Notes: generated by a model from the sequence alone, not told the origin. Positions 6,756 to 39,013 are shown, counted from the first letter of the stretch. The stretch is DNA of 39,013 nt from Balneolaceae bacterium (GCA_007126675.1 SLAU01000279.1:1-39013); one strand, 5' to 3'. Numbers and translations are program-made.

Positions 6756-8234
6756 CTACGCCTTACCGATTAAATTCTCAGCTATCTTAGCAGAAGATAA
6801 CACGCCCGGCAATCCTGCTCCGGGATGGGTGCCGGCTCCAACAAAATATAGATCTCTTACATCCTCACTGCGGTTGTGCGGACGGAACCATGCTGATTGG
6901 GTAAGTATCGGCTCAACCGAAAAAGCAGACCCTTTAAAACTGTTCAGAGTATCTTGAAAATGAAGCGGATCGATATAATGCTCTGCAACAAGATTTTCCT
7001 GCAAACCGGGCAGGTAGTTTTCTTCCAGGAAATTCATAATCGCATCGCGATATTTGGGTGCCATCTCGTTCCAGTCAGTGCCGCTGTCGAGGTGTGGAAC
7101 TGGTGACAGTACATAAAAACCTTCATGTCCCTCAGGTGCAAGTGAAGGATCCGTGATGGTCGGCATATGCAGGTAAAGTGAAAAATCGTCTGCCAATTCT
7201 TTTTTGTGGAAGATATCTTTCAATAAACCCTTGTAGCGTTCACCCAGAATAATATTGTGATGAGCCAGTCCGGAATCGAGATATCGTTTTTTTGTCCCGA
7301 AATAGATCACAAAAAGTGACATACTGTATTTTGTACGCTCAATTTTCCGGTCTGTGTATTTTTTCCTATGACGTTTGGCGATCAAGTTTTTATAGGTAAA
7401 CGCAACGTCCGAATTGGCAACCACAATGTCAGAAGCTAACACTTCGCCATCCTTAAGACGTACACCGGTGGATTTTCCATTCTTGATCAGTATTTCATCT
7501 ACCTCAGAGTTTAATCTTATTGTGCCGCCTTGTTCTTCAATCAACCTTACCATGGCATCTACAATAGCACCGGTACCTCCCATTGCGTAATGAACACCCC
7601 ATTCGCGTTCAAGGTAATGAATCATCGCATAGATTGAAGTTGTATCAAACGGGTTGCCGCCAACAAGCAGCGGATGGAAAGAGAAACATCGGCGCAGAAA
7701 ATCATCTTCAATAAATTGGCTTACATATTTATAAACTGTTTTGTACGATTGCAGCTTGATTAAATCCGGAGCTACCTTCAGCATATCGGTAAATTTCAAA
7801 AACGGCTTATCGGCGAGTTCCACAAACCCTTTATCAAAAATAGCTTTGGTGGTTTTGATAAACGCCTCATAACCCTCTTTATCTTTAGGATTGCGTTTTT
7901 CAATTTCTTTCAATGTAAAAGAGGGGTCGCCGTTATAATCAAACTTATCGCCATTGTGATCAAATATCCTGTAAAAAGGATTGCAGGGTACAAACTTGAT
8001 GTAATCAGAACGGCTTTTCCCTGCTGCTGTAAAAATGTCATCAAACATAAATGGTGCAGTTATTACAGTAGGGCCTCCATCAAACTTGAATCCGTTTTTC
8101 TCATAAACATAAGCGCGTCCGCCGGGTTTGTCTCTTTTTTCTACAACGGTAACATTGTGCCCGCTTGAGAGTAATCGTGATGCTGTTGCCAATCCGCCAA
8201 ACCCGCTTCCAATTACAATGATATTTTTCTTCAT
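6756..8234 (-). CDS. crtI: Phytoene desaturase (carotenoid biosynthesis)
   Basis: 492 aa with an N-terminal FAD fold ([14 protein letters not shown]...[12 protein letters not shown]) and a C-terminal [15 protein letters not shown] motif. Confidence 0.9.
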
Positions 8235-9094: not shown

Positions 9095-9691
9095 ATGAAC
9101 CTGACTCTATTTTTCATTCTGATTACAATAGCACTCTCTTTATACACCCTCTATTTTAACAGAAAACTGCTCGAAGCTTGGATGCTAAGGCCTTATGCAA
9201 CCATTTCCAACAATGAATGGCATACCGTGCTGACCTCCGGTTTTTTACACGGAAGTCTGGCACATCTTTTGGTAAATATGTTTGTGCTGTTCTTTTTTGG
9301 TATCTCACTTGAACAAACGGTGGGTCCTTTTCATTTTGCTGCGCTCTATCTGAGTGGAATAATGGTATCTGCAATTCCTTCCCTGATTTCTCAGAAGGAC
9401 AATCCCAGATATGCAACCTTGGGTGCTTCAGGGGGTGTTCAAAGTGTTTTATTTGGGTTCATATTTCTTTTTCCTACTGAGTCGATCATTTTTGTATTCT
9501 TACCGATACCCATACCTGCATGGGTTTTTGGCCTCATATTTCTGGCATACAGCATCTATGAAAGTAAACGCGGAATGGGGAATATAAACCACGAAGCCCA
9601 CATTGCCGGAGCCGTTTGGGGAGTATTGTATCTGCTTATATTTGTACCAAACTCACTGGATCACATATTGACTATTATGGGTTTGATTTAG
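9095..9691 (+). CDS. Rhomboid-family intramembrane serine protease
   Basis: A 198-aa polytopic membrane protein with a GASGGV catalytic Ser motif and a downstream HIAG His motif. Confidence 0.85.
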   Translation: MNLTLFFILITIALSLYTLYFNRKLLEAWMLRPYATISNNEWHTVLTSGFLHGSLAHLLVNMFVLFFFGISLEQTVGPFHFAALYLSGIMVSAIPSLISQKDNPRYATLGASGGVQSVLFGFIFLFPTESIIFVFLPIPIPAWVFGLIFLAYSIYESKRGMGNINHEAHIAGAVWGVLYLLIFVPNSLDHILTIMGLI

Positions 9692-25996: not shown

Positions 25997-27874
25997 ATGC
26001 CTGCAGTAGTCGCTTTTGAAACAATTCCGGAGCTTTACATTAATCTGGTTAAAAAATACGAAAATACTGATAAAACAGCTTTTGCTTTTAAGCCCAGTCC
26101 TAATGAAGATTATAAAACAGTTACATGGAGCACAGTTAAAGAAGATGTAACCGCCTTAGCCAGTTATTTACTGCAGCAGGGTGTTGAAGAAGGCGAGCGG
26201 GTGGCCATACTCAGCGAAAACCGATATGAATGGGCTGTTGTTGATCTCGCAATTCAATCCATCGGCGCTATAAATGTAGCCCTGTATACAACACTGCCGC
26301 CGCATCAGTGCGAATATATATTGAATGATTCCGGTGCAAGAATCTTTTTTGTATCCACCGGAATACAACTGAAAAAAGCAGTAGAAATTTTTGACAATTG
26401 TAAAGAACTGAAGCAGGTTATCGCTTTTGACGAACCCAAAGTGAAAGCTCATCTTAAAAATAATTTTGTGAAACTTTTTGACACTGTTTGCACCGCAGGT
26501 TCTAAAGCAGAAACAAAACTAAGCGATCAACTGAAAAAAAGAACAAAAGGGGTTAAGCCGGAAGATGTTTCTACACTCATCTATACGTCCGGTACAACCG
26601 GGAACCCAAAAGGTGCAATGCTGACTCACCGTAATATTGTGAGCAACGTTAAGGCTGCTCATGATGCTATTACGATTAGTGATAAAGATCGTTGCCTTTC
26701 ATTTTTACCCCTCTGCCATTCATTTGAACGTACCGGCGGTTATTATGCTATGGCCGCCGGAGGTGCAGAGATTTATTATGCCGAAAGTGTGGATACCGTT
26801 GCTAAAAATATGCTGGAAGTGAATCCGACTATTGTGGTCAGTGTTCCGAGATTGTTTGAAAAGATCTACAATCTTGTAAAGAAAAATGTTCAGGAAGGCA
26901 GTGCAATACAGCAAGCGATTTTCAATTGGGCACTTGATGTGGGAGAAAAACACTGGAAAGGAAAGCGCGGTCTGATAAGTGTTCAAAAAACAATAGCGGA
27001 TAAGCTGGTATTTGATAAACTGAGGCAGCGTACCGGCGGCAGAATACGGTTCTTCGTTTCGGGTGGTGCTGCACTTCCGGCAGAGATTGGTGCTTTCTTT
27101 ATGTCAGCTGGCTTAAATATCCTCGAAGGCTATGGCCTTACCGAAACTTCGCCGGTGATGACCTGTAACCGGTACGGGGAAGAGGAGATGGGTACAGTTG
27201 GAAAAGTGATTAATGGAGTTACGGTTGGAATCCAGCGGCTCGAGGATAACAAAATCATTGCACAGCTTAGCGGTGAGGACTATCCTTCCGATTTAACCTC
27301 CGAGCCCGGTGAGATTTTGAATCGCGGACCCAATACGATGAAAGGGTACTGGAATAATGAAGAAGCAACCAAAGAGATGATTGATGACGATGGCTGGCTT
27401 CATACCGGCGATGTCGGGCGGTTTGTAAACGGCAGGCTCCAGATTACCGACCGCATTAAGCATATGATCGTGAACGCCGGTGGTAAAAATATTTATCCCG
27501 GTCCGATTGAGGATATGTTCAAGACGAGCAAGTGGGTCGACCAGCTTGTTGTGGTTGGGGAAAACCAGGCTTTTATGGCTGCACTGATTGTACCCGATTT
27601 TGAAGCACTTGAAACACATGCAAAGCAGAACGACATCAAGTATGATTCAATGGAAGATCTTCTGAAAAATGAAGCAATCGTCAATATTTTCAGTAAAGAA
27701 ATTCGTTCGTTCTCAAAAGAACTTGCGTCTCATGAGAAAATCAGAGATTTCAGATTAATACCCAATGAGTTTACGGTTGAAACCGGCGAACTCACACCCA
27801 CCCTGAAAGTAAAAAGACGTGTAATTGAAGATAAATACGGTGATTTGATTGAGGATATGTTTAAAGACGCATGA
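25997..27874 (+). CDS. Long-chain fatty acid--CoA ligase (AMP-dependent synthetase)
   Basis: 625 aa with the AMP-binding motifs YTSGTTGNPKGAMLTHRN, EGYGLTETSP and GWLHTGD. Confidence 0.88.
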   Translation: MPAVVAFETIPELYINLVKKYENTDKTAFAFKPSPNEDYKTVTWSTVKEDVTALASYLLQQGVEEGERVAILSENRYEWAVVDLAIQSIGAINVALYTTLPPHQCEYILNDSGARIFFVSTGIQLKKAVEIFDNCKELKQVIAFDEPKVKAHLKNNFVKLFDTVCTAGSKAETKLSDQLKKRTKGVKPEDVSTLIYTSGTTGNPKGAMLTHRNIVSNVKAAHDAITISDKDRCLSFLPLCHSFERTGGYYAMAAGGAEIYYAESVDTVAKNMLEVNPTIVVSVPRLFEKIYNLVKKNVQEGSAIQQAIFNWALDVGEKHWKGKRGLISVQKTIADKLVFDKLRQRTGGRIRFFVSGGAALPAEIGAFFMSAGLNILEGYGLTETSPVMTCNRYGEEEMGTVGKVINGVTVGIQRLEDNKIIAQLSGEDYPSDLTSEPGEILNRGPNTMKGYWNNEEATKEMIDDDGWLHTGDVGRFVNGRLQITDRIKHMIVNAGGKNIYPGPIEDMFKTSKWVDQLVVVGENQAFMAALIVPDFEALETHAKQNDIKYDSMEDLLKNEAIVNIFSKEIRSFSKELASHEKIRDFRLIPNEFTVETGELTPTLKVKRRVIEDKYGDLIEDMFKDA

Positions 27875-27885
27875 CTGTGAGTAAC

Positions 27886-27980
27886 GAGTATTGAGTATCG
27901 AGTATCAAGTAGTGAGATTTGGAAAGAAGTCTCGGTAAACATCTTGCTACTCAATACCTGATACTCGATACTCACTACTC
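27886..27980. repeat. Long imperfect inverted repeat built from gagta-type words
   Basis: The 16-bp perfect core tgagtatcgagtatca (27892-27907) pairs with tgatactcgatactca (27959-27974). Imperfect extensions lie on both sides. It sits between convergent genes. Confidence 0.6.
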
Positions 27981-27981
27981 T

Positions 27982-28386
27982 CTAATCAAGATTCCCATCC
28001 TCAAAAGTAGTATCAGCTGCTGGTTTTTTGCGTGCTTCGATGAATGAACGCACACCGGCAACCAGGAAAAAGATACATGCAAGGGCCATAATCGCCTGAC
28101 CGATTGCAGCTGCAGGACGCTCAAGCTCTCCGCCGCCCAGAACGCCGAATACACTCATCAGTCCGCCGAAAGATCCGCCCAGGCCAAGTATAGCAAGCAG
28201 CAGGGCAGCGTGCATGGAGTGTTTGCGCATGTTTTCGCTGCGATTGCCCAGAAAACCAAGGCCGACAAAAGCTAATCCGAAAAATGCAGGAATCAGCGCG
28301 GTTGCACTGGCCGCTCCGGTAGCAATGTAGGAAGCAATTCCAAGAATAATTAAGAAAACACCTGTGTAAATAGATAGTTTAGTCAT
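27982..28386 (-). CDS. Small Gly/Ala-rich integral membrane protein (four predicted TM segments), function unknown
   Basis: A 134-aa ORF with four hydrophobic segments read directly from the translation. Confidence 0.6.
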   Translation of the reverse strand: MTKLSIYTGVFLIILGIASYIATGAASATALIPAFFGLAFVGLGFLGNRSENMRKHSMHAALLLAILGLGGSFGGLMSVFGVLGGGELERPAAAIGQAIMALACIFFLVAGVRSFIEARKKPAADTTFEDGNLD

Positions 28387-31552: not shown

Positions 31553-31904
31553 AGCAATTAATTTTTTCAACGCAAAAATAGAGAATGTTCAGGTTAAAAA
31601 CAGGGATGGGGAATTTTGAATGAGAAATTATGGAATTTTGAAATTTTGAATGATGAATGATGCATTACGACCTGCCAGTGTTTCCGGCGCTTTTTGCCGG
31701 AATCCTGGTAGCGTCTGATCATCGGGTAAATCGAAATAAAATCTGCGAAAATCAGCGAACTCTGCGAGAACGTTCTCGCGGAGTTACGCTGATGATTCAC
31801 AGAGTTGCGCAGAGCACGGGATTGGGTTAAAACCATTTCCAAACCACCTGTACAACCCGTATTTTATAGAAAACCGGATAACTAATAGAGAAAAAGGACT
31901 AAAA

Positions 31905-33104
31905 ATGGCAAAACTAACCCTGAAAGACGTTAACGAATTCAAAAATAAAACCGTACTGATGCGTGTCGATTTCAATGTTCCCGTGAAAGACGGAGTGATT
32001 TCGGACGACAACCGTATCGTACAGGCACTCGAATCGATCAACTATGTGGTTGAGCGTGGTGCGAAATTAATATTAACCAGCCACCTTGGCCGGCCGGCCG
32101 GTGAGCCGTCGCCGGAGTTCAGCCTGAAACCGGTAGCCGATCACCTTGCAACACTGGTGGATGTACCGGTGCACTTTGCGGAAGACTGCATAGGCGATAA
32201 AGCTGACAGCGTAATTGAAAAAGCCGGGTTTGGCGAAATCGTTCTGCTCGAAAATGTGCGTTTTCATAACGGAGAGAAAAAGAACGATCCTGAATTTGCC
32301 AAAAAACTGGCCAAACATGCCGACCTGTTTGTGAACGATGCATTCGGCAGCAGCCACCGCGCCCATGCTTCCGTGGCGGGTGTAACGGAAGTTCTGCAGC
32401 CATCGGTTTCAGGATTCCTGCTTGAAAAAGAGATCCGCTACCTCGAAGAGAGCGTAAACAACCCGAACCATCCTTTTGTAGCGATACTGGGTGGGGCAAA
32501 AGTGTCCGATAAAATTGGGGTGATCGAAAACCTGCTGGATAAGGTGGATACCATTATAATCGGCGGCGGAATGACCTACACATTCTTCAAGGCAAAAGGT
32601 CTGCCGGTTGGAAACTCACTTGTAGAGGAGGATAAAGTTGACCTGGCGAAGGAACTGCTGCAAAAAGCAGAAAAAGCCGGTGTAAATGTGATGCTGCCTG
32701 TTGACTCGGTTGTTGCTAAAGAGTTCAGCAATGACGCCGAGCACAAAGTGGTGCCGCAGGATGGAATCGAGGATGGCTGGATGGCACTTGATATCGGCCC
32801 CGAGTCGGCCATTGCGTTTGGCAACCAGATCAAAAATGCACGAACCGTACTCTGGAATGGACCGATGGGCGTTTTCGAAATGGAGAACTTTGCAGAGGGC
32901 ACATTCACCGTAGCCAAAGCGCTGGCAGAAGCTACTTCATCGTACGGTGCAACCACCATTATCGGCGGCGGTGATTCCGCATCAGCCATTAAAAAATCGG
33001 GGCTGCAGGATAAAGTATCGCACGTATCCACCGGCGGCGGCGCCAGCCTGGAATACCTGGAAGGGAAAGAACTGCCGGGTGTGGCGGCACTAACGGATAA
33101 ATAA
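31905..33104 (+). CDS. pgk: Phosphoglycerate kinase
   Basis: 399 aa with [16 protein letters not shown] and GGGDSA motifs. Confidence 0.96.
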
Positions 33105-33214
33105 CCGCGGAGGCGCGGAGAGCGCTGAGAGTGGGGTTTTATGAGTAGGACCTGACAGTGTGGTCTGGTGTTTTTCCAGACCTCCTGTAAGCGTCCGGAA
33201 TTTTTTTTAAACCG

Positions 33215-33521
33215 AAAACTAATCTGCGCACACAAGCGTCTCCGCAGTTAATAGAACGCGGATAGACACGGATCGTGCGGATGCTCGCCGATCAAGAAAA
33301 GATAAATATCAGTGAAGATCAGCCTCATCCGCATGATCGGCGTCCCATCAGCCCGTAAATTTTATCACATTCCCTGTGTTACCACAGTGAAAAACAATCA
33401 GCGCCCACTGCGCCTCCGCGGTAAAAAAAACGCGTATCGTGCAGACAATCACCGATCAAGAAAAACAGTGGCTTACGGTCAATTCTTGCGGATATGAAAT
33501 TATTTTACGTATTTATTTATA
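33215..33521 (+). repeat. Repeat R1: ~307-bp non-coding leader upstream of gene A, homologous to 38687-39013
   Basis: It aligns by eye along its whole length with R2 (aaaacYaatctgcg ... gatcgtgcgga ... gatcaagaaaagataaa ... ccgcatgatcggcgt ... aaattattttacgtattt). It is built internally from two related half-units. Confidence 0.85.
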
Positions 33522-33635
33522 CAAGCATACCGCTTTGTCGGTAATGTCTTCTTCAATTTTTATTATTTGTGATGTAAAACAGTTCAGGCATTTTTAACCG
33601 ACGGGCAGGTTAACCTAATCCCACCGGAGGTTATT

Positions 33636-34370
33636 ATGAAAAAATGGTTGATACTCAATTTCTCTCTCTCTCTCTCTCTCCTGATTGTGCTGCCGGTTTT
33701 CGGGCAGATCACGATCAACGATAATGGTAATGTGGCCATAAAAACGGAAAACACGGTGTCCGTTCGTGCCTTAAATGTTGAGTGCAACGGCAATAACAAT
33801 TGTGGACATACTGGTACCAGGTATGGTATATACTCGATAGCGGATGGTGCCTACGGGTCGTACGGTATTCGCGGACATGCTCAGAACGGCTATGGCGGTT
33901 ATGGGGTGTATGGGTCGGCATCCAACAATACAATCAGCTACGCGGGCTATTTTACCGGGGATGTTTATACTACGGGTGATTATCTGACTTCCGATGAACG
34001 ATTCAAGACCAACATTCGCTCCCTCCATGATGAAAATGTGATGGACAAGCTCGGTCAGTTGACCCCGGCCCGTTTTGAATATTTGGGGGCCGGCGAACTG
34101 CGACAGCAGGGTCTGCCTGAATCACACGCCAAAGTGGGAGAACATCTGGGGATACTGGACGGAGAAGTAGAAAACCTATTCCCGGAACTGGTCCGTGATG
34201 TAGTGCATTTTCTCAATGAAAACGACATAGGCAATGGAAACCCGCCCGATACAGTTATTACCAAAGCCGTCAATTACAACGGATTGATTCCCGTGCTAAT
34301 CACCGCAATACAGGAACAGCAGCAAAAAATAGAGGAACTGGAAGCGCGGATTGAAGCGCTGGAACAATAA
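33636..34370 (+). CDS. Gene A: secreted tail-fibre-domain protein with a Gly/Tyr-rich N-domain and a Peptidase S74 intramolecular-chaperone (self-cleaving) C-domain
   Basis: GGAGG lies 5 nt upstream. The signal peptide is MKKWLILNFSLSLSLLIVLPVFG|Q. The protein has YG-rich repeats and YAGYFTGDVYTTGDYLTSDERFKTNI, with Ser119 and Lys124 in S-x4-K spacing. It also has GILDGEVENLFPELV and a C-terminal coiled coil, AIQEQQQKIEELEARIEALEQ. Confidence 0.8.
   Translation: MKKWLILNFSLSLSLLIVLPVFGQITINDNGNVAIKTENTVSVRALNVECNGNNNCGHTGTRYGIYSIADGAYGSYGIRGHAQNGYGGYGVYGSASNNTISYAGYFTGDVYTTGDYLTSDERFKTNIRSLHDENVMDKLGQLTPARFEYLGAGELRQQGLPESHAKVGEHLGILDGEVENLFPELVRDVVHFLNENDIGNGNPPDTVITKAVNYNGLIPVLITAIQEQQQKIEELEARIEALEQ
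33661..33680 (+). repeat. Perfect (TC)10 dinucleotide microsatellite inside the signal-peptide codons of gene A
   Basis: The sequence tctctctctctctctctctc was read directly. It encodes part of FSLSLSL. Confidence 0.95.
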
Positions 34371-34406
34371 TTGAACCGTAATGGATGAATATTCCGGAGG
34401 TATGAT

Positions 34407-35327
34407 ATGATAGCAGAGAAAAAAACAATATTCGGACTAGTTGCAGCCGCAGCCGTTTTGCTTGCGGCCCTGGCGGTTTCCTGCGGCGACGACCCGGTTA
34501 GCGCCGAACCCGAAGATGAGATTGAGCTTGCCGGTACCTCTTGGAAACTTACTTCTGTTGAATCGGTTTCGGACACACTGTTCGACGGCTACGAAAACGG
34601 CATCTGGCAGGTGCCTGAAACCGCGCAGTATTTGCTGGAATTCACCCCGGACAGTTCCGTGTATGCTTTTCTCTACTGCGAAGAATGTCCGGATGGTGAA
34701 GGCAGCCGGTTTGAAGTTGCCGGGGAAGATTCACTTTCCATAAATCTTATCTGCGAATCCGGCTCAGTTTGCCAGAAAAATATTCCGGTCAGGGAGCGTC
34801 TGGAGTCGGTAGTAACCGTTGAGCAGGTGGGAGAAACCCTGAGAGCCGAATACGTTTTTACAGACGATGAGAATGAAGAGTTCCGGGGAAGGATGCATTT
34901 CAGCCGTGCTGAAAATGTGAGGCCGGAGCCGGTGCCTTTTGAAGTATTAAAACAACAATGGCTGGTTAGAAAATGTGGAATAAATACCGGGAACCTGGAA
35001 TTTGATGAAGAGAATGAAAATCTCAGCCGGTTTGAACTGATCATAACCACACAGGAAGAGTTTGACTACTATATAACTTGCAATGAAGAAACTGGAGTAG
35101 ATATGGATGAATATTTCGTGCTTGCCGGGTTAAGCAGTGTTCATCATAGCTGTGTAGATGTTCCAGAACATACGATTTATCTGCTCAATGATATATTGTA
35201 TTATAGTGTTGCGATAAGAGAAGCAGCGTGTGATATGCCGGAGAGTGCACAGTATATTGTAAGCCTTCCAAGGACCTATCAAGATCATCTGATAGAGTTT
35301 AAAGTATTTTGGAGGGTTTGGTTATGA
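34407..35327 (+). CDS. Gene B: Cys-rich lipoprotein with a META-like N-domain and a PrcB-C-like C-domain (domain calls by eye)
   Basis: GGAGG lies 6 nt upstream and the lipobox is LAVSC|GDDP. The LAGTSWKLTSVE motif is typical of META/HslJ domains. The C-terminal half (ELIITTQEEFDYY...VDMDEYFVLAG...IYLLNDILYYSV...AQYIVSLP...IEFKVF) resembles the PrcB_C pattern. Confidence 0.75.
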   Translation: MIAEKKTIFGLVAAAAVLLAALAVSCGDDPVSAEPEDEIELAGTSWKLTSVESVSDTLFDGYENGIWQVPETAQYLLEFTPDSSVYAFLYCEECPDGEGSRFEVAGEDSLSINLICESGSVCQKNIPVRERLESVVTVEQVGETLRAEYVFTDDENEEFRGRMHFSRAENVRPEPVPFEVLKQQWLVRKCGINTGNLEFDEENENLSRFELIITTQEEFDYYITCNEETGVDMDEYFVLAGLSSVHHSCVDVPEHTIYLLNDILYYSVAIREAACDMPESAQYIVSLPRTYQDHLIEFKVFWRVWL

Positions 35328-37570
35328 AATATTGCCTCTTAATGATAGCTTTTCTGATTACAACTTCAACTGTGCTTTCACAGGAAAGCGGGAATTACTA
35401 TTGGTATAACGGTGAGAAAAAATATTTAGATTTAAAAACAGATGAACACTTTATTTTGCTTGATCAATTTATAGATGTAAACACTTTGATAGCTGAATTT
35501 AATATTGAAAGTGATCGAATCGGAGAGATTAAGAAAGCAAACATCGGTTCCTATATGGTTCCTCGTCAATCGGGAATCGAGTTCAATAATAAAGATTATC
35601 ATTTTCTAATCATTTCAGGGGAAGAAAATAATATTAATCTGAATTCTCCAAAAATTTCTTATCATGCGCCTTTTTTTAAGTCGAAATCCGGAGAAAGGGT
35701 TGGTTTGTCGAATCTGTTTTATGTCCGCCTGCATCGTGAAGGTGATATCAAGATACTCGAAGAACTCGCAGAACAGTATCATGTAGATATACTTGGTAAT
35801 AACTATTACATGCCGTTGTGGTACACTCTGGCATCCAACCGAAGCAGTTCCGGGAATGCACTTGAAATGGCCAACATATTTTATGAAAGCGGTTATTTCA
35901 AAGCTGCACATCCGGATTTTATTTTTTTTAATATGATTAATTCATCGACGGTGAGTGATCCGTTTTTTCTCGATCAATGGAATTTAAACAATACCGGTCA
36001 ATATGGAGTAGGAATTCATGGAGCTGATATTCAAATGATTAATGCATGGGAAATCACAGAGGGGAGGGAAGAAATTATTACAGCTGTAAATGATCGTGGT
36101 ATATCCAAAATCCATCCGGATTTACCAAATATACATCCGGTCAGTTTTGACGCGGAAGGCGGCGTAGGCGAACCGGAACCTCAATCATCGAATGATGATC
36201 CGCCTCCGAGCGTTGTACGCGGTCCGCATGGAACCGCGGTGGCCGGTATTATTGGTGCGATGGCAAATAATGAAGAGGGGATTGCAGGTATTGCACCAAA
36301 TGGTATGCTTATGTCAATCAGCTCGAATATGGAAACGTCTTTTGATGGCGTTATGAAATTCGCATCAGCGATTGAATTTGCATGGGAAAATGGTGCATCT
36401 ATAATCAATAACTCTTGGAGCTTTCATCCTGAATTTGCGTTAGATTGTATGGATGAAGCTATAAATAATGCAATCAATCATGGAAGAAATGGCTTAGGAA
36501 CTGTATTGATATTTTCTACAGGTAATAATGATGGGAATTTAAGGTGGCCTTCAAACAACCCGGATGTCATTGCAGTCGGAGCGTCAAGTATGTGTGATGA
36601 GCGAAAATCACCCACTTCGTGTGATACGGAAAGCGCATGGGGAAGCAATTTTGGAACAGGTCTTGATGTCGTGGCCCCGGGTGTGCTAATACCAACAACA
36701 GATAATGCGTTCGAAGGTTATAATGATGAAATTGATCCAATCGAAATTCATATTATCAATAATGGAACTTTGGTATCAGAAGATTATGAAAATACAAGTT
36801 ACACAATTTGGTTTCATGGTACATCTGCAGCAGCACCTCATGTAGCAGGCATCGCCTCTCTGATGTTATCAATCAATGATGATCTGACTTATGATGAAGT
36901 CCGCTATATCATTGAAAGCTCTGCCGAAAAAGTTGGCGGCTATACGTATACAATGGGCGCCGGTGCACGGCCCGATCTTACCTGGAACGAGGAGATGGGA
37001 TATGGACGGGTGAATGCGTATCGTGCGCTTATAGGAACTATTGAGAACCACGGAGCTACACTGGGAATCGAAAAACCCCTGGTTACCCTGCCCCTGTTTG
37101 AGGATATGGACTTCCACGAAGATGTATACCTGGCAAGCGGCTCTACGCTTACGATCGAAGCAAGGGAAAACCCGGTAACATTAACCTCCAATTCCGGTTC
37201 GGTTACCATCGGTAAACCGGCAACGGGAACTACTCAGGCGAAGCCACTGGCCGGCGGCGGGGATGATTCCGGTGGTGATGTAGATGAGATCGGTTCAGAA
37301 ACGCCTCAGAAGATTGCACTTTCTGCCAACTATCCAAATCCTTTCAACCCGGTTACGACTATCCGTTATGAACTTCCTGTAAACAGCAATGTCCGCCTGG
37401 AAGTGTACGACATCCTCGGACGCCGCGTAGCCGTATTGGTGGAAGGGCTAATAGAATCGGGTGCGCATGAAGTAGCATTCGATGCGTCAAACCTTGCCAG
37501 CGGGGTTTACTTATACCGGCTTTCAACCGCCGATTTTGTACAGACACGGCAGATGGTGCTGGTGAAGTAG
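35324..37570 (+). CDS. Gene C: S8-family serine peptidase (subtilase) with an N-terminal propeptide-like region and a T9SS type-A C-terminal sorting domain
   Basis: The ATG at 35324 lies 7 nt after GGAGGG and overlaps the stop of B (ATGA). The signal peptide is MKYCLLMIAFLITTSTVLSQ. The catalytic triad motifs are AVNDRG (Asp codon 36092-36094), HGTAVAGIIGA and GTSAAAPHVAG. The C-terminus NYPNPFNPVTTIRYELP...GVYLYRL...MVLVK is the T9SS sorting domain. Confidence 0.88.
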   Translation: MKYCLLMIAFLITTSTVLSQESGNYYWYNGEKKYLDLKTDEHFILLDQFIDVNTLIAEFNIESDRIGEIKKANIGSYMVPRQSGIEFNNKDYHFLIISGEENNINLNSPKISYHAPFFKSKSGERVGLSNLFYVRLHREGDIKILEELAEQYHVDILGNNYYMPLWYTLASNRSSSGNALEMANIFYESGYFKAAHPDFIFFNMINSSTVSDPFFLDQWNLNNTGQYGVGIHGADIQMINAWEITEGREEIITAVNDRGISKIHPDLPNIHPVSFDAEGGVGEPEPQSSNDDPPPSVVRGPHGTAVAGIIGAMANNEEGIAGIAPNGMLMSISSNMETSFDGVMKFASAIEFAWENGASIINNSWSFHPEFALDCMDEAINNAINHGRNGLGTVLIFSTGNNDGNLRWPSNNPDVIAVGASSMCDERKSPTSCDTESAWGSNFGTGLDVVAPGVLIPTTDNAFEGYNDEIDPIEIHIINNGTLVSEDYENTSYTIWFHGTSAAAPHVAGIASLMLSINDDLTYDEVRYIIESSAEKVGGYTYTMGAGARPDLTWNEEMGYGRVNAYRALIGTIENHGATLGIEKPLVTLPLFEDMDFHEDVYLASGSTLTIEARENPVTLTSNSGSVTIGKPATGTTQAKPLAGGGDDSGGDVDEIGSETPQKIALSANYPNPFNPVTTIRYELPVNSNVRLEVYDILGRRVAVLVEGLIESGAHEVAFDASNLASGVYLYRLSTADFVQTRQMVLVK

Positions 37571-37623
37571 TAGATTTGAAAATTAGTTGATCAGGGAATC
37601 AGGGACCTGTCAGCACCCACCGG

Positions 37624-37660
37624 ATCTGACAGCGTCCCGGGTTCGAATTCAGATTTTTTT
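37624..37660 (+). terminator. Possible weak intrinsic terminator after gene C
   Basis: A 6-bp stem atctga (37624-37629) / tcagat (37649-37654) is followed by a T7 run ending at 37660. The stem is short and the loop is large. Confidence 0.35.
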
Positions 37661-37662
37661 AG

Positions 37663-37722
37663 CAGGAACAGCAGCAAACAATCGAGCAACTGGAAGCGTG
37701 GATTGAAGCGCTGGAACAATAA
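37663..37722 (+). pseudogene. Remnant of the last 19 codons of a gene-A paralogue
   Basis: caggaacagcagcaaacaatcgagcaactggaagcgtggattgaagcgctggaacaataa matches 34311-34370 (QEQQQTIEQLEAWIEALEQ* against QEQQQKIEELEARIEALEQ*). An in-frame TAG lies immediately upstream. Confidence 0.7.
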
Positions 37723-37768
37723 ATCGAACCGAAACGGATTGAATGGAGTAACACTCCGGAGGCCTTCT

Positions 37769-38687
37769 ATGGATGCAGAGAGTAAAACAACAATTGGATT
37801 TGTGGCAGCCGCATCAATCGCACTGATGACGATACTTGTGATTTCCTGCGGGGACGATCCCGTACAGCCGGGCGCAGACCCGATACCGGATCTTGCCGGA
37901 ACCGCCTGGAAACTGACAACCGTTGAATCGATCTCCGACACGTTGTTCGACAGCTACGAAAACGGCACATGGCAGGTGCCCGATGAAGAGCAGTACCTGA
38001 TTGAATTTACGGCAGACAGCTCCCTGTTTGCTTTTCTTTATTGCGAGGAGTGTCCGGATAGTGAAGAGAGCCGTTTTGAAGTTGCCGGTGAGGATTCGGT
38101 TTCTATAAATCTGAACTGTGAATCCCGTTCTGTTTGCCAGAAAAATATACCGGTCAGAGAACGCCTGGAGTCGGTAGTAACCGTTGAGCAGGAAAATGAA
38201 ACCCTGATAGCAGAATACGTTTTTACAGGCGATGAGAGTGAAGAGTTCCGGGGAAGGATGCATTTCAGCCGTGCTCATAATGTGAGACCGGAGTCGGTGC
38301 CTTTTGAAGTATTAAGAGGGCAATGGCCGGTATGGAACTGCGGGTTTAATGCCGGGAATCTGGAATTAGATGATGACAATGAAAACCTTAGCCAGCTTGA
38401 ACTGATTATAACCACACAGGAAGAGTTTGACCACTATATAACCTGCAATGAAGAAACCGAAGTGGACATGGAGGAATACTTTGTGCTTGCCGGTTATAGC
38501 AGGATGCATCATAGCTGTGTCTATATTTCAGGACATACGGTGTATCTGCTTAATGATATATTGTATTATAGTGTTAAGTGAAGCAGCGTGTCACGTTCCG
38601 GAGAGAGCACGTTATATGGTACGTCTTTCCAGGGTGTACCTGGACCATCCGATTGAATTTAAAGTATTTTGGAGGACTTGGATGTAA
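37769..38687 (+). pseudogene. Gene B2: diverged paralogue of lipoprotein B, disrupted by a 5-nt indel with a TGA at 38579-38581
   Basis: GGAGG lies 6 nt upstream of the ATG at 37769 and the lipobox is LVISC|GDDP. B2 is colinear with B throughout. After ...LNDILYYSVK* the homology continues in the +1 frame (EAACHVPERARYMVRLSRVYLDHPIEFKVFWRTWM*) up to 38687. Confidence 0.7.
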
Positions 38688-39013
38688 AAACCAATCTGCG
38701 TCCACAGCGCCTCTGCGGTTAATATAACACGGATAAACACGGATCGTGCGGAGAATCGCTGATCAAGAAAAGATAAAAATCTGTGAAGATCTGTCCCATC
38801 CGCATGATCGGCGTTCTATTAGCCCATAAATTTTATCACATTCCACATCTTACCGTAATAAAACCAATCTGCACCCACAGCGCCTCTGTCCCGTAGGGAT
38901 CCCTTTGGGACGGTTAAAAGAACGGGATCGTGCGGACAATCACCGATCAAGGAAAAACAGTGGTTTACGGTCAATTCTTGCAGAAGTTAAATTATTTTAC
39001 GTATTTGTTCATA
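38687..39013 (+). repeat. Repeat R2: second copy of the R1 leader, truncated by the window end
   Basis: It is colinear with 33215-33521. It contains an extra 22-nt double mini-hairpin, tcccgtaggga tccctttggga (38889-38910). Confidence 0.85.

Follow-up and report, generated by a model that had tools for sequence, protein, structure and literature searches.

A candidate repeat-switched leader cassette before exchangeable type IX secretion cargo in a Balneolaceae bacterium

The subject of this analysis is a variable locus in a stretch of 39,013 nt of DNA from a Balneolaceae bacterium (GCA_007126675.1, SLAU01000279.1:1-39013), hereafter the window. Here, a non-coding stretch separates pgk (31905-33104) from three plus-strand genes, A, B and C, which encode, respectively, a protein with an S74 chaperone domain of the kind found in phage tail fibres, a lipoprotein, and a protease with a sorting domain of the type IX secretion system (T9SS). 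Comparison with related sequences, all of which are metagenome assemblies, leads us to the view that this is probably a simple-sequence-repeat contingency locus, in which a portable leader with a perfect (CT)n tract in its signal-peptide codons stands before exchangeable modules of T9SS cargo; that the tract acts as a switch is what we infer from these sequences.

The leader cassette and its (CT)n tract

The leader is present in more than one copy, as the initial annotation had stated: besides R1, upstream of gene A, there is R2, which starts at 38687 and leaves the window. The repeat itself is real, but its length is ~490-510 nt and not the ~310 nt given there, as is seen when R1 leading into A is aligned with R2 leading into a gene denoted D. 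The latter is known from L001, an assembly that is 99.97% identical to the window over 14,607 nt and extends beyond the window end. Inside the window, R1 (from 33215) and R2 (38687-39013) show 78% identity over 330 columns. The homology spans a conserved block, a ~120-nt segment, the Shine-Dalgarno (SD) site GGAGG, an ATG and all of the signal peptide as far as the cleavage site ..F(G/S)↓Q, beyond which the sequences are unrelated. Within this homology block lies a (TC)10 tract, which had been overlooked in the initial annotation. The elements concerned, with gene A, are the following.

33215 to 33460, plus strand: distal half of leader R1, two ~170-bp sub-repeats
33461 to 33514, plus strand: promoter-like core, AAAAACAGT-N33-TTTTACGTATTT, found in every leader copy, including the otherwise different leader of locus L005
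33515 to 33635, plus strand: putative 5' untranslated region of ~120 nt, ending in the SD sequence GGAGG (33626-33630), 5 nt before the first start codon, ATG1
33636 to 34370, plus strand: gene A, 244 aa; signal peptide (aa 1-23), Gly/Tyr-rich mini-fibre (aa 24-118), S74 chaperone (aa 119-244)
33661 to 33680, plus strand: (TC)10 simple sequence repeat inside the signal-peptide codons of gene A, the proposed slipped-strand switch
38687 to 39013, plus strand: leader R2, truncated at the end of the window; SD, ATG1, a second start codon ATG2, (CT)12 and gene D follow in L001

The tract encodes the Leu-Ser core of the signal peptide. A pure CT/TC tract occupies the identical position in every leader copy recovered, and its length varies:

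Window, gene A: 20 nt, 10 units
L001, L002 and L003: 22 nt, 11 units
Gene D behind R2: 24 nt, (CT)12
L005 (a different upstream leader, the same A allele): 26 nt, 13 units
L008: 33 nt (16.5 units)
L014 (a Rhodohalobacter metagenome-assembled genome, MAG): 36 nt, 18 units
L006 and L009: contigs begin within the tract

In other leader copies, tracts of 9-18 units were seen or inferred. Other dinucleotide repeats of at least five units were found neither in the 39-kb window nor in 185 kb of fetched loci. Across the 14,607 nt shared by the window and L001, there are three single-nucleotide differences and one indel, and this indel is one TC unit (10 versus 11). Since the tract is the sole indel in 14.6 kb and the reading frames vary among assemblies, as detailed below, the tract is a mutational hot spot that moves the gene among all three frames. 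The two contigs that break inside it give a hint of length heterogeneity within a sample.

What is translated depends on two start codons in different frames, namely ATG1 at 33636 and ATG2 at 33644 (+8 nt). With the ten units of the window, ATG1 is in frame and opens the full 244-aa A with the signal peptide MKKWLILNFSLSLSLLIVLPVFG↓Q. With the 11 units of L001-L003, the ATG1 frame ends after 16 codons, and only ATG2 reads through, yielding a product that starts with MVDTQFLSLS.. and carries no positive charge there. Gene D (12 units), L008 and L014 are in this same ATG2 state; across L001-L003, L008 and gene D, the ATG1 frame is open for only 16-20 codons. L005 has a single ATG, and this is out of frame. 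Thus, all three reading frames are observed across leader copies and assemblies. The predicted proteins differ correspondingly in length: independent assemblies give A as 244, 242 or 227 aa, the L008-type A as 266 aa or, in two assemblies, 226 aa, and D as 719 aa with ..LSLSLSLL.., as 717 aa with ..LSLSLL.. (shorter by three units) or as 704 aa, the last starting at a GTG past the tract. A repeat-free orthologue of A from a Calditrichota MAG has the signal peptide MFKNFLIITLLLISYSAVFG↓Q (MFKNFLII..VFG↓Q), which aligns with the ATG1 version and so supports ATG1 as the export-competent start. The start codons chosen by gene callers vary with tract length (33636-33646 in the window; 9228-9238 and 14720-14730 in L001), with the result that database entries of one gene differ in their N-terminus and often lack a signal peptide.

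A switch built on these elements can be envisaged as follows. Slipped-strand mispairing would alter the tract by whole CT units and shift the frame. With ATG1 in frame, which is the state of the window, a canonical signal peptide (MKKWLIL..) would be initiated 5 nt downstream of the SD sequence, and the product would be exportable. In the next frame, translation from ATG1 would terminate right after the tract and ATG2 alone would read through, with an N-terminus (MVDTQF..) devoid of positive charge, so that export would be impaired. In the third frame, no start codon would reach the gene, which would be off. Thus, the tract would directly gate the first gene of each module, that is, A behind R1 and D behind R2; the tightly packed genes B and C may also be affected, via the lost translation of A and polarity.

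As a whole, the leader is best read as a duplicated expression cassette that comprises distal repeats, a promoter-like core, a 5' untranslated region, an SD site, a start codon and a complete Sec signal peptide, with the AAAAACAGT-N33-TTTTACGTATTT block as the putative promoter. The core motifs gave no matches in 100 shuffles and, hence, are not expected by chance. A genome-wide dispersed repeat or miniature inverted-repeat transposable element was considered and rejected, as the leader motifs are absent from the other 33 kb of the window. A conserved RNA fold in the 5' untranslated region of the leader was not convincing (-4.7 kcal/mol; the covariation term was unfavourable).

The distal halves of both leaders (33215-33460 and 38687-38950) contain two ~170-bp sub-repeats each, and most copies carry a GATCG-N13-CGATC palindrome. 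GATC is ~4-fold enriched in the distal halves (19-21 versus 5 per kb), two other places in the window being similar. A Dam-type switch based on this enrichment was rejected: the enrichment is real, yet other parts of the window are equally dense.

Exchangeable modules in the island downstream of pgk

By exact-protein look-ups, the A-B-C locus was found on contigs of soda-lake sediment and soil metagenomes and MAGs, including GCA_007135305.1. A search of the genome collection for the leader returned a single true match, in a MAG labelled uncultured Rhodohalobacter sp. (Balneolaceae, Balneolota; L014), the other two of the three matches being unrelated; in the JGI metagenomes, the leader pattern gave only two chance matches, both unrelated. 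A, B and C are neighbours, in the same order and with the same spacing, in every close relative recovered (L001-L007). The initial annotation had viewed them as one dedicated system; as a fixed set of three genes, this is not upheld: L014, the module of R2 and D, and the relatives of the B domains show that A-B-C is one arrangement of exchangeable parts.

In L001, leader R2 is followed by gene D, which encodes a protein of 719 aa with Reprolysin-type matches, the metzincin motif HELGHIQGAWH and a T9SS sorting domain, then by genes for a 199-aa lipoprotein and a 222-aa beta-barrel outer-membrane protein; neither A nor B is present, and the lipoprotein is not a detectable relative of B. L008 matches the window at 99.2% identity from 24490 as far as 33680, where the tract ends, and beyond this point the identity is at most 68% or there is no match; the mature part of its A allele is a different one, and in its B only the N-domain is present. 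In L005, the right border of the island is occupied by an A-B unit, which comes after a gene whose end resembles that of C. A trypsin-like (S1) T9SS protease and two T9SS propeller proteins follow the leader and an A allele in L014, where there is no B. The different arrangements in L008, L005 and L014 imply that the island between pgk and a conserved HHH_3 gene consists of strain-variable modules with a common 5' cassette. The cassette ends at the signal-peptidase site, and the cargo beyond it differs among copies and strains, the versions being S74 mini-fibre with lipoprotein and S8 T9SS protease, metzincin, and mini-fibre with S1 protease and propeller proteins. Accordingly, of the variable cell-surface system put forward in the initial annotation, the variability of the locus, the secreted or surface nature of the encoded proteins and their non-phage derivation stand, but the unit is a repeat-bearing leader with exchangeable cargo.

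Remnants of A and B follow gene C, in agreement with the second partial A/B copy initially reported there, and the spacer after pgk contains an element that is found again at the other side of the island:

33101 to 33214, plus strand: post-pgk spacer ('T' element) with terminator-like hairpins; the 118-bp element that is found again in inverted form is 33101-33218
37663 to 37722, plus strand: remnant of a second A copy, 60 nt, corresponding to the final 20 codons of A at 93% identity
37769 to 38687, plus strand: B', with ~79% nucleotide and 74% amino acid identity to B; its end abuts R2

A frameshift near 38575 interrupts B', and an independent assembly shows it as well. At the right end of the island in L001, there is a third partial leader piece, then an inverted copy of the 118-bp element (76%; L001 18552-18656), then the HHH_3 gene. 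The whole variable region of ~10 kb is, therefore, bracketed by inverted copies of this element. An additional inverted repeat, of 25 nt, is formed by 33104-33128 and 33398-33422. An inverton, or inversion of the whole island, was considered and rejected, given that L001, L002 and L008, which span the leader, are collinear with the window and that R2 lacks the left arm. In L015 (686-1078), the tail of A is followed by a C-domain-only B and by a C reduced to the first ~50 codons joined to the end of the sorting domain; judging from this structure, L015 is a deletion derivative of the A-B-C module.

The remaining part of the window is core chromosome, including rpoC, proS, cinA and pgk, and the host chromosome is best read as that of a Rhodohalobacter-like member of the Balneolaceae. 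No genes for the T9SS machinery are located within the 39-kb window; related Balneolaceae loci hold many proteins with a T9SS sorting domain. No Rfam family reached its gathering score anywhere in the window. Two intergenic features were noted in passing. A 39-nt inverted repeat at 27878-27988 (85% complementary, 33 nt apart), with GAGTAT-like units, lies just 3' of the gene for an AMP-binding enzyme (end at 27874) and overlaps the start of the adjacent minus-strand open reading frame (ORF). In the intergenic region 5' of pgk (31607-31662), two tandem copies of AATTTTGAATGA.. are found, about 30 nt apart.

The proteins of the A-B-C module

The genes that follow A are these.

34407 to 35327, plus strand: gene B, 306 aa; lipoprotein with Cys26, a META-like N-domain (~aa 40-170) and a variable C-domain (~aa 170-306)
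35324 to 37570, plus strand: gene C, 748 aa from the ATG that overlaps the stop of B; signal peptide, variable N-region of ~160-250 aa, S8 domain, type-A T9SS sorting domain

The three genes lie on the same strand with the gaps initially described, 36 nt between A and B and a 4-nt ATGA overlap between B and C.

The initial assignment of A as an S74 protein with a signal peptide is borne out by Pfam: Peptidase_S74 (PF13884) matches aa 119-187 with 34.8 bits (cut-off 22), and two A alleles score 49.6 and 58.9 bits. The S74 part contains SDERFK at aa 119-124 (S-x4-K), and SDER(F/L/I)K is kept in six A-like sequences. The catalytic role of this Ser/Lys dyad is established for endosialidase. Also kept across A-like sequences are the G(I/L)LAQEVE-type motif, which in the window copy reads GILDGEVE, the NY(N/Q)GLI motif and the terminal coiled coil. 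A most likely forms a trimer and releases its S74 chaperone by cutting itself at Ser119. Among the alleles of A, the mature fibre part is hypervariable and the S74 part is conserved. The best match of A among PDB sequences is a phage long tail fibre (6f45), at a weak E = 0.12. A phage origin was rejected, as A has no tblastn match in 50,697 phage records (1e-5), and, as already pointed out in the initial annotation, no integrase, transposase or phage structural gene accompanies it. Cellular S74 proteins are routinely annotated by NCBI as 'tail fiber domain-containing protein', and A belongs there. Elsewhere, the genes next to A-like ones encode other T9SS cargo or toxins, and a sorting domain is fused to some of the A-like proteins. 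In L023 and L024, from an unrelated bacterium of the Fibrobacteres-Chlorobi-Bacteroidetes group, an A-like S74 gene is followed by a gene for a 162-aa T9SS protein; at position 7253, downstream of this pair, a poly-T run measures 10 nt in one assembly and 9 nt in the other.

Protein B has the lipobox ..LAVSC26GDD and nine Cys residues, and is indeed the Cys-rich lipoprotein it had been taken for. It matches no Pfam or NCBIfam family. The META domain (PF03724) initially suggested for it has no direct match to B at E <= 1 and is reached only via an intermediate protein, P0027, which matches the B profile at 3.4e-34 and META at 28 bits (cut-off 24) and thereby links the N-terminal half of B to META. 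The other domain suggested, PrcB_C (PF14343), fared worse, with no match at E <= 1 to B, to 10 remote relatives or to any of 46 family members; the analogy with dentilisin was dropped along with it, for want of profile support and with the match of C to PrtP far below the cut-off. The two-domain B family comprises only 6 proteins. The C-domain belongs to a family of ~60 representative sequences, mostly stand-alone lipoproteins of 150-190 aa, for which there is no Pfam family. The model of full-length B is of low confidence (predicted local distance difference test score, pLDDT, 54) and its fold search was uninformative; the model of the N-terminal half is also of low confidence. The model of the C-domain built from a deep alignment is confident (pLDDT 92.8). 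One relative of the C-domain adjoins a Trypsin_2 (S1) T9SS protease and another is found near a C10 T9SS protease, both without A. In the latter locus (L020, 6001-11955), the relative is located ~3 kb upstream of the Peptidase_C10 T9SS protease, and none of the four small unannotated ORFs between them matches the B profiles.

That C is an S8 protease with a T9SS sorting domain is now backed by matches to Peptidase_S8 (PF00082, 127.5 bits), Por_Secre_tail (PF18962, 37.6 bits) and, in NCBIfam, TIGR04183 (45.6 bits, cut-off 23). The subtilase motifs are NDRG at residue 256, HGTAVAG at 302 and GTSAAAP at 499, and, among solved structures, the nearest to C is mirolase of Tannerella forsythia (8ehe, E = 3.9e-29). 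From these features, C is predicted to be an active T9SS-exported subtilase. The identity between alleles is distributed unevenly along B and C:

B N-terminal domain: 82-100% aa
B C-domain and the first ~160 aa of C: 30-45% aa in the two most divergent alleles (L006, L007)
B C-domain in L005: 58-75% aa
C catalytic domain: 50-90% aa
C sorting domain: 100% aa

The C-domain of B and the N-terminus of C diverge together, as one contiguous block. When the window is compared with L005, L006 and L007, positions 34900-35800 form a hyperdivergent block between segments that are 82-100% identical. This pattern suggests recombination or joint diversifying selection that acts on two adjacent protein parts. 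Given the gene layout and the co-divergence, B plausibly acts as the cognate partner of C and would, in the module, either inhibit C or tether it.

Alternative explanations, known counterparts and significance

Several other explanations have to be weighed against a repeat-switched leader. According to one, A, B and C form a dedicated three-component surface machine whose parts always act together, the leader being merely its regulatory region. The constant order and spacing in L001-L007 and the tight junctions (36 nt and -4 nt) fit this idea, but two-domain B is limited to the 6 proteins mentioned, an S1 T9SS protease without B follows the leader and A allele of L014, R2 leads into a metzincin without A or B, either half of B can occur without the other (the N-domain in L008, the C-domain in L015), and A-like genes elsewhere adjoin unrelated partners; we regard such a machine as unlikely. 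It also seems rather improbable that ATG2 is the real start, that there is no on/off switch, and that the tract is simply a Leu-Ser stretch of variable length, the out-of-frame versions being decaying alleles or assembly errors. Were this so, it would be hard to see why, in every copy, the SD sequence is spaced 5 nt from ATG1 but 13 nt from ATG2, why ATG1 gives a Lys-containing n-region like that of the repeat-free orthologue whereas the ATG2 N-terminus is acidic or uncharged, why third-frame states recur in long, otherwise intact contigs, or why the leader of L005 lacks ATG2; a constraint on the peptide alone would not hold the Leu and Ser codons as a perfect CT repeat of up to 36 nt. In favour of ATG2, it is the commonest productive frame (A in L001-L003; D with 12 and with 9 units; L008; L014), it is conserved in four leader versions, and two D alleles differ by exactly three units, so that the frame is kept.

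Sequencing or assembly artefacts of a low-complexity stretch might, in principle, account for the differences in tract length, since only metagenome assemblies are at hand and two contigs end in the tract. This appears very unlikely, though: tracts of 20-36 nt are well within read length, 11 units are found in three independent assemblies, the same codon positions carry the tract in different genes, in different strains and in another MAG, and no other indel occurs in 14.6 kb. It is scarcely credible that the locus represents the remains of a phage or a mobile element, or that DNA inversion or Dam-type methylation of its GATC-rich repeats controls it instead of the CT tract. What could be adduced for these possibilities are the S74 tail-fibre domain of A, the 25-nt inverted repeats, the inverted 118-bp copies at both ends of the island and the ~4-fold enrichment of GATC in the leader; yet genes for an integrase, a transposase or phage structural proteins are missing, A has no phage match, the flanks are formed by the core genes rpoC, proS and pgk, L001, L002 and L008 run collinear with the window, none of them being inverted, and the GATC density is similar elsewhere in the window.

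Returning to the repeat-switched leader before exchangeable cargo, some observations weigh against this interpretation, too. ATG1 is in frame in only 1 of ~14 inferred states, ATG2 and the third frame being dominant; owing to this rarity, ATG2 could be the functional start, or the locus could be mostly off or low in the sampled populations. The differences in length between assemblies show polymorphism, not reversible switching at high frequency. The conserved leader core was not called in a scan for sigma-70 promoters, and its role as a promoter is, hence, a putative one. As A lacks both a T9SS sorting domain and a lipobox, it can be placed on the surface only tentatively. As to the role of B, the model of its C-domain has no fold match in the PDB with E < 0.4, the B profiles match no PDB sequence, and in the cultured Rhodohalobacter sp. 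SW132 a relative of B adjoins a Tricorn-like propeller and not a protease.

Repeats in signal-peptide codons have well-characterized counterparts. In Helicobacter pylori, CT dinucleotide repeats in the signal-peptide coding region of oipA underlie phase variation (PMC10564699). Systems of the oipA/hopZ/sabA type share with the leader the perfect CT tract in signal-peptide codons and the shift between on and off frames with the number of units. Unlike them, the present locus belongs to free-living soda-lake Balneolota rather than to a host-adapted pathogen, its cargo consists of an S74 mini-fibre and T9SS proteases rather than outer-membrane adhesins, the block from promoter to signal peptide is duplicated before unrelated cargo, a second start codon lies in another frame, and the switching is a predicted one. 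The opa genes of Neisseria are present as multiple loci that carry CTCTT repeats in the leader peptide and join a conserved 5' end to a hypervariable body (PMC3960869). They resemble the leader in the pyrimidine repeat within the hydrophobic core of the signal peptide and in the several copies with a conserved 5' end and recombined mature parts; here, in contrast, the repeat is a dinucleotide and not a pentamer, the bodies belong to different protein families, and only 2-3 copies are seen. For lic2A of Haemophilus influenzae, a repeat tract with alternative initiation codons in different frames is reported to work as a three-level switch (Dixon et al. 2007, cited in PMC6625227). The likeness, judged from sequence, lies in the two ATGs in different frames before the repeat, from which strong, weak and off states might result, and a separate role for ATG2 would be in keeping with it; lic2A, however, encodes a cytoplasmic glycosyltransferase and its repeat is a tetranucleotide, whereas here the second start would change export competence.

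For the pair of B and C, the counterpart is the mirolase gene of T. forsythia, which is preceded by an overlapping, co-transcribed gene for a lipoprotein inhibitor, a potempin (PMC9890683). The layout of this KLIKK/potempin system, with the stop of the lipoprotein ORF overlapping the start of the T9SS peptidase gene, is that of the ATGA junction between B and C, and the two also have in common several catalytic classes in one region and conserved signal peptides on unrelated proteins. However, B has two domains and 306 aa as compared to the 98-132 aa of potempins, no homology or shared fold was found between B and potempins (oligonucleotide/oligosaccharide-binding or eight-stranded up-and-down barrels), the pair here is preceded by an S74 gene and a repeat switch, and inhibition by B is putative. 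Protein A, in turn, has the Pfam domain, the Ser-x4-Lys motif and the terminal coiled coil of the S74 chaperone of phage endosialidases and tail fibres, but differs from the phage proteins by its Sec signal peptide, a passenger of only ~95 aa, the lack of phage neighbours and the T9SS cargo beside it.

Taken together, the proposed mechanism is of a known kind, but the phylum, the lifestyle and the secretion context are new. In the literature library searched, no paper was found to link T9SS cargo to repeat-driven phase variation. To our knowledge, phase variation driven by repeats is known almost only from host-adapted pathogens such as Neisseria, Haemophilus, Helicobacter, Campylobacter and mycoplasmas. 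A more far-reaching proposal, which we put forward as possible but doubtful, is that a portable leader from promoter to signal peptide, with its own on/off switch, has been recombined before alternative T9SS cargo (mini-fibre, S8, S1 and metzincin), giving a free-living halophile both stochastic switching and cassette exchange in its set of surface and secreted proteolytic proteins, that the C-domain of B represents a family with a new fold whose members are lipoprotein partners or inhibitors of T9SS proteases, and that this would be the first such system for T9SS cargo and for the Balneolota. Such a system might be driven by phages that exert pressure on the hypervariable mini-fibre, or by the interplay of producers and cheaters where proteases are secreted.

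On the practical side, gene callers mis-start or truncate the tract-bearing genes according to tract length. The unclassified C-domain family of B, which recurs beside T9SS proteases, is a separate lead. If the proposed switch is real, contingency loci would extend to environmental bacteria of the Bacteroidota group and to T9SS cargo, with the tract gating the Sec export, and hence the T9SS secretion, of proteases and of a hypervariable fibre protein. The locus would then offer a natural system for the study of bet-hedging in secreted 'public good' enzymes or in phage-exposed surface structures.

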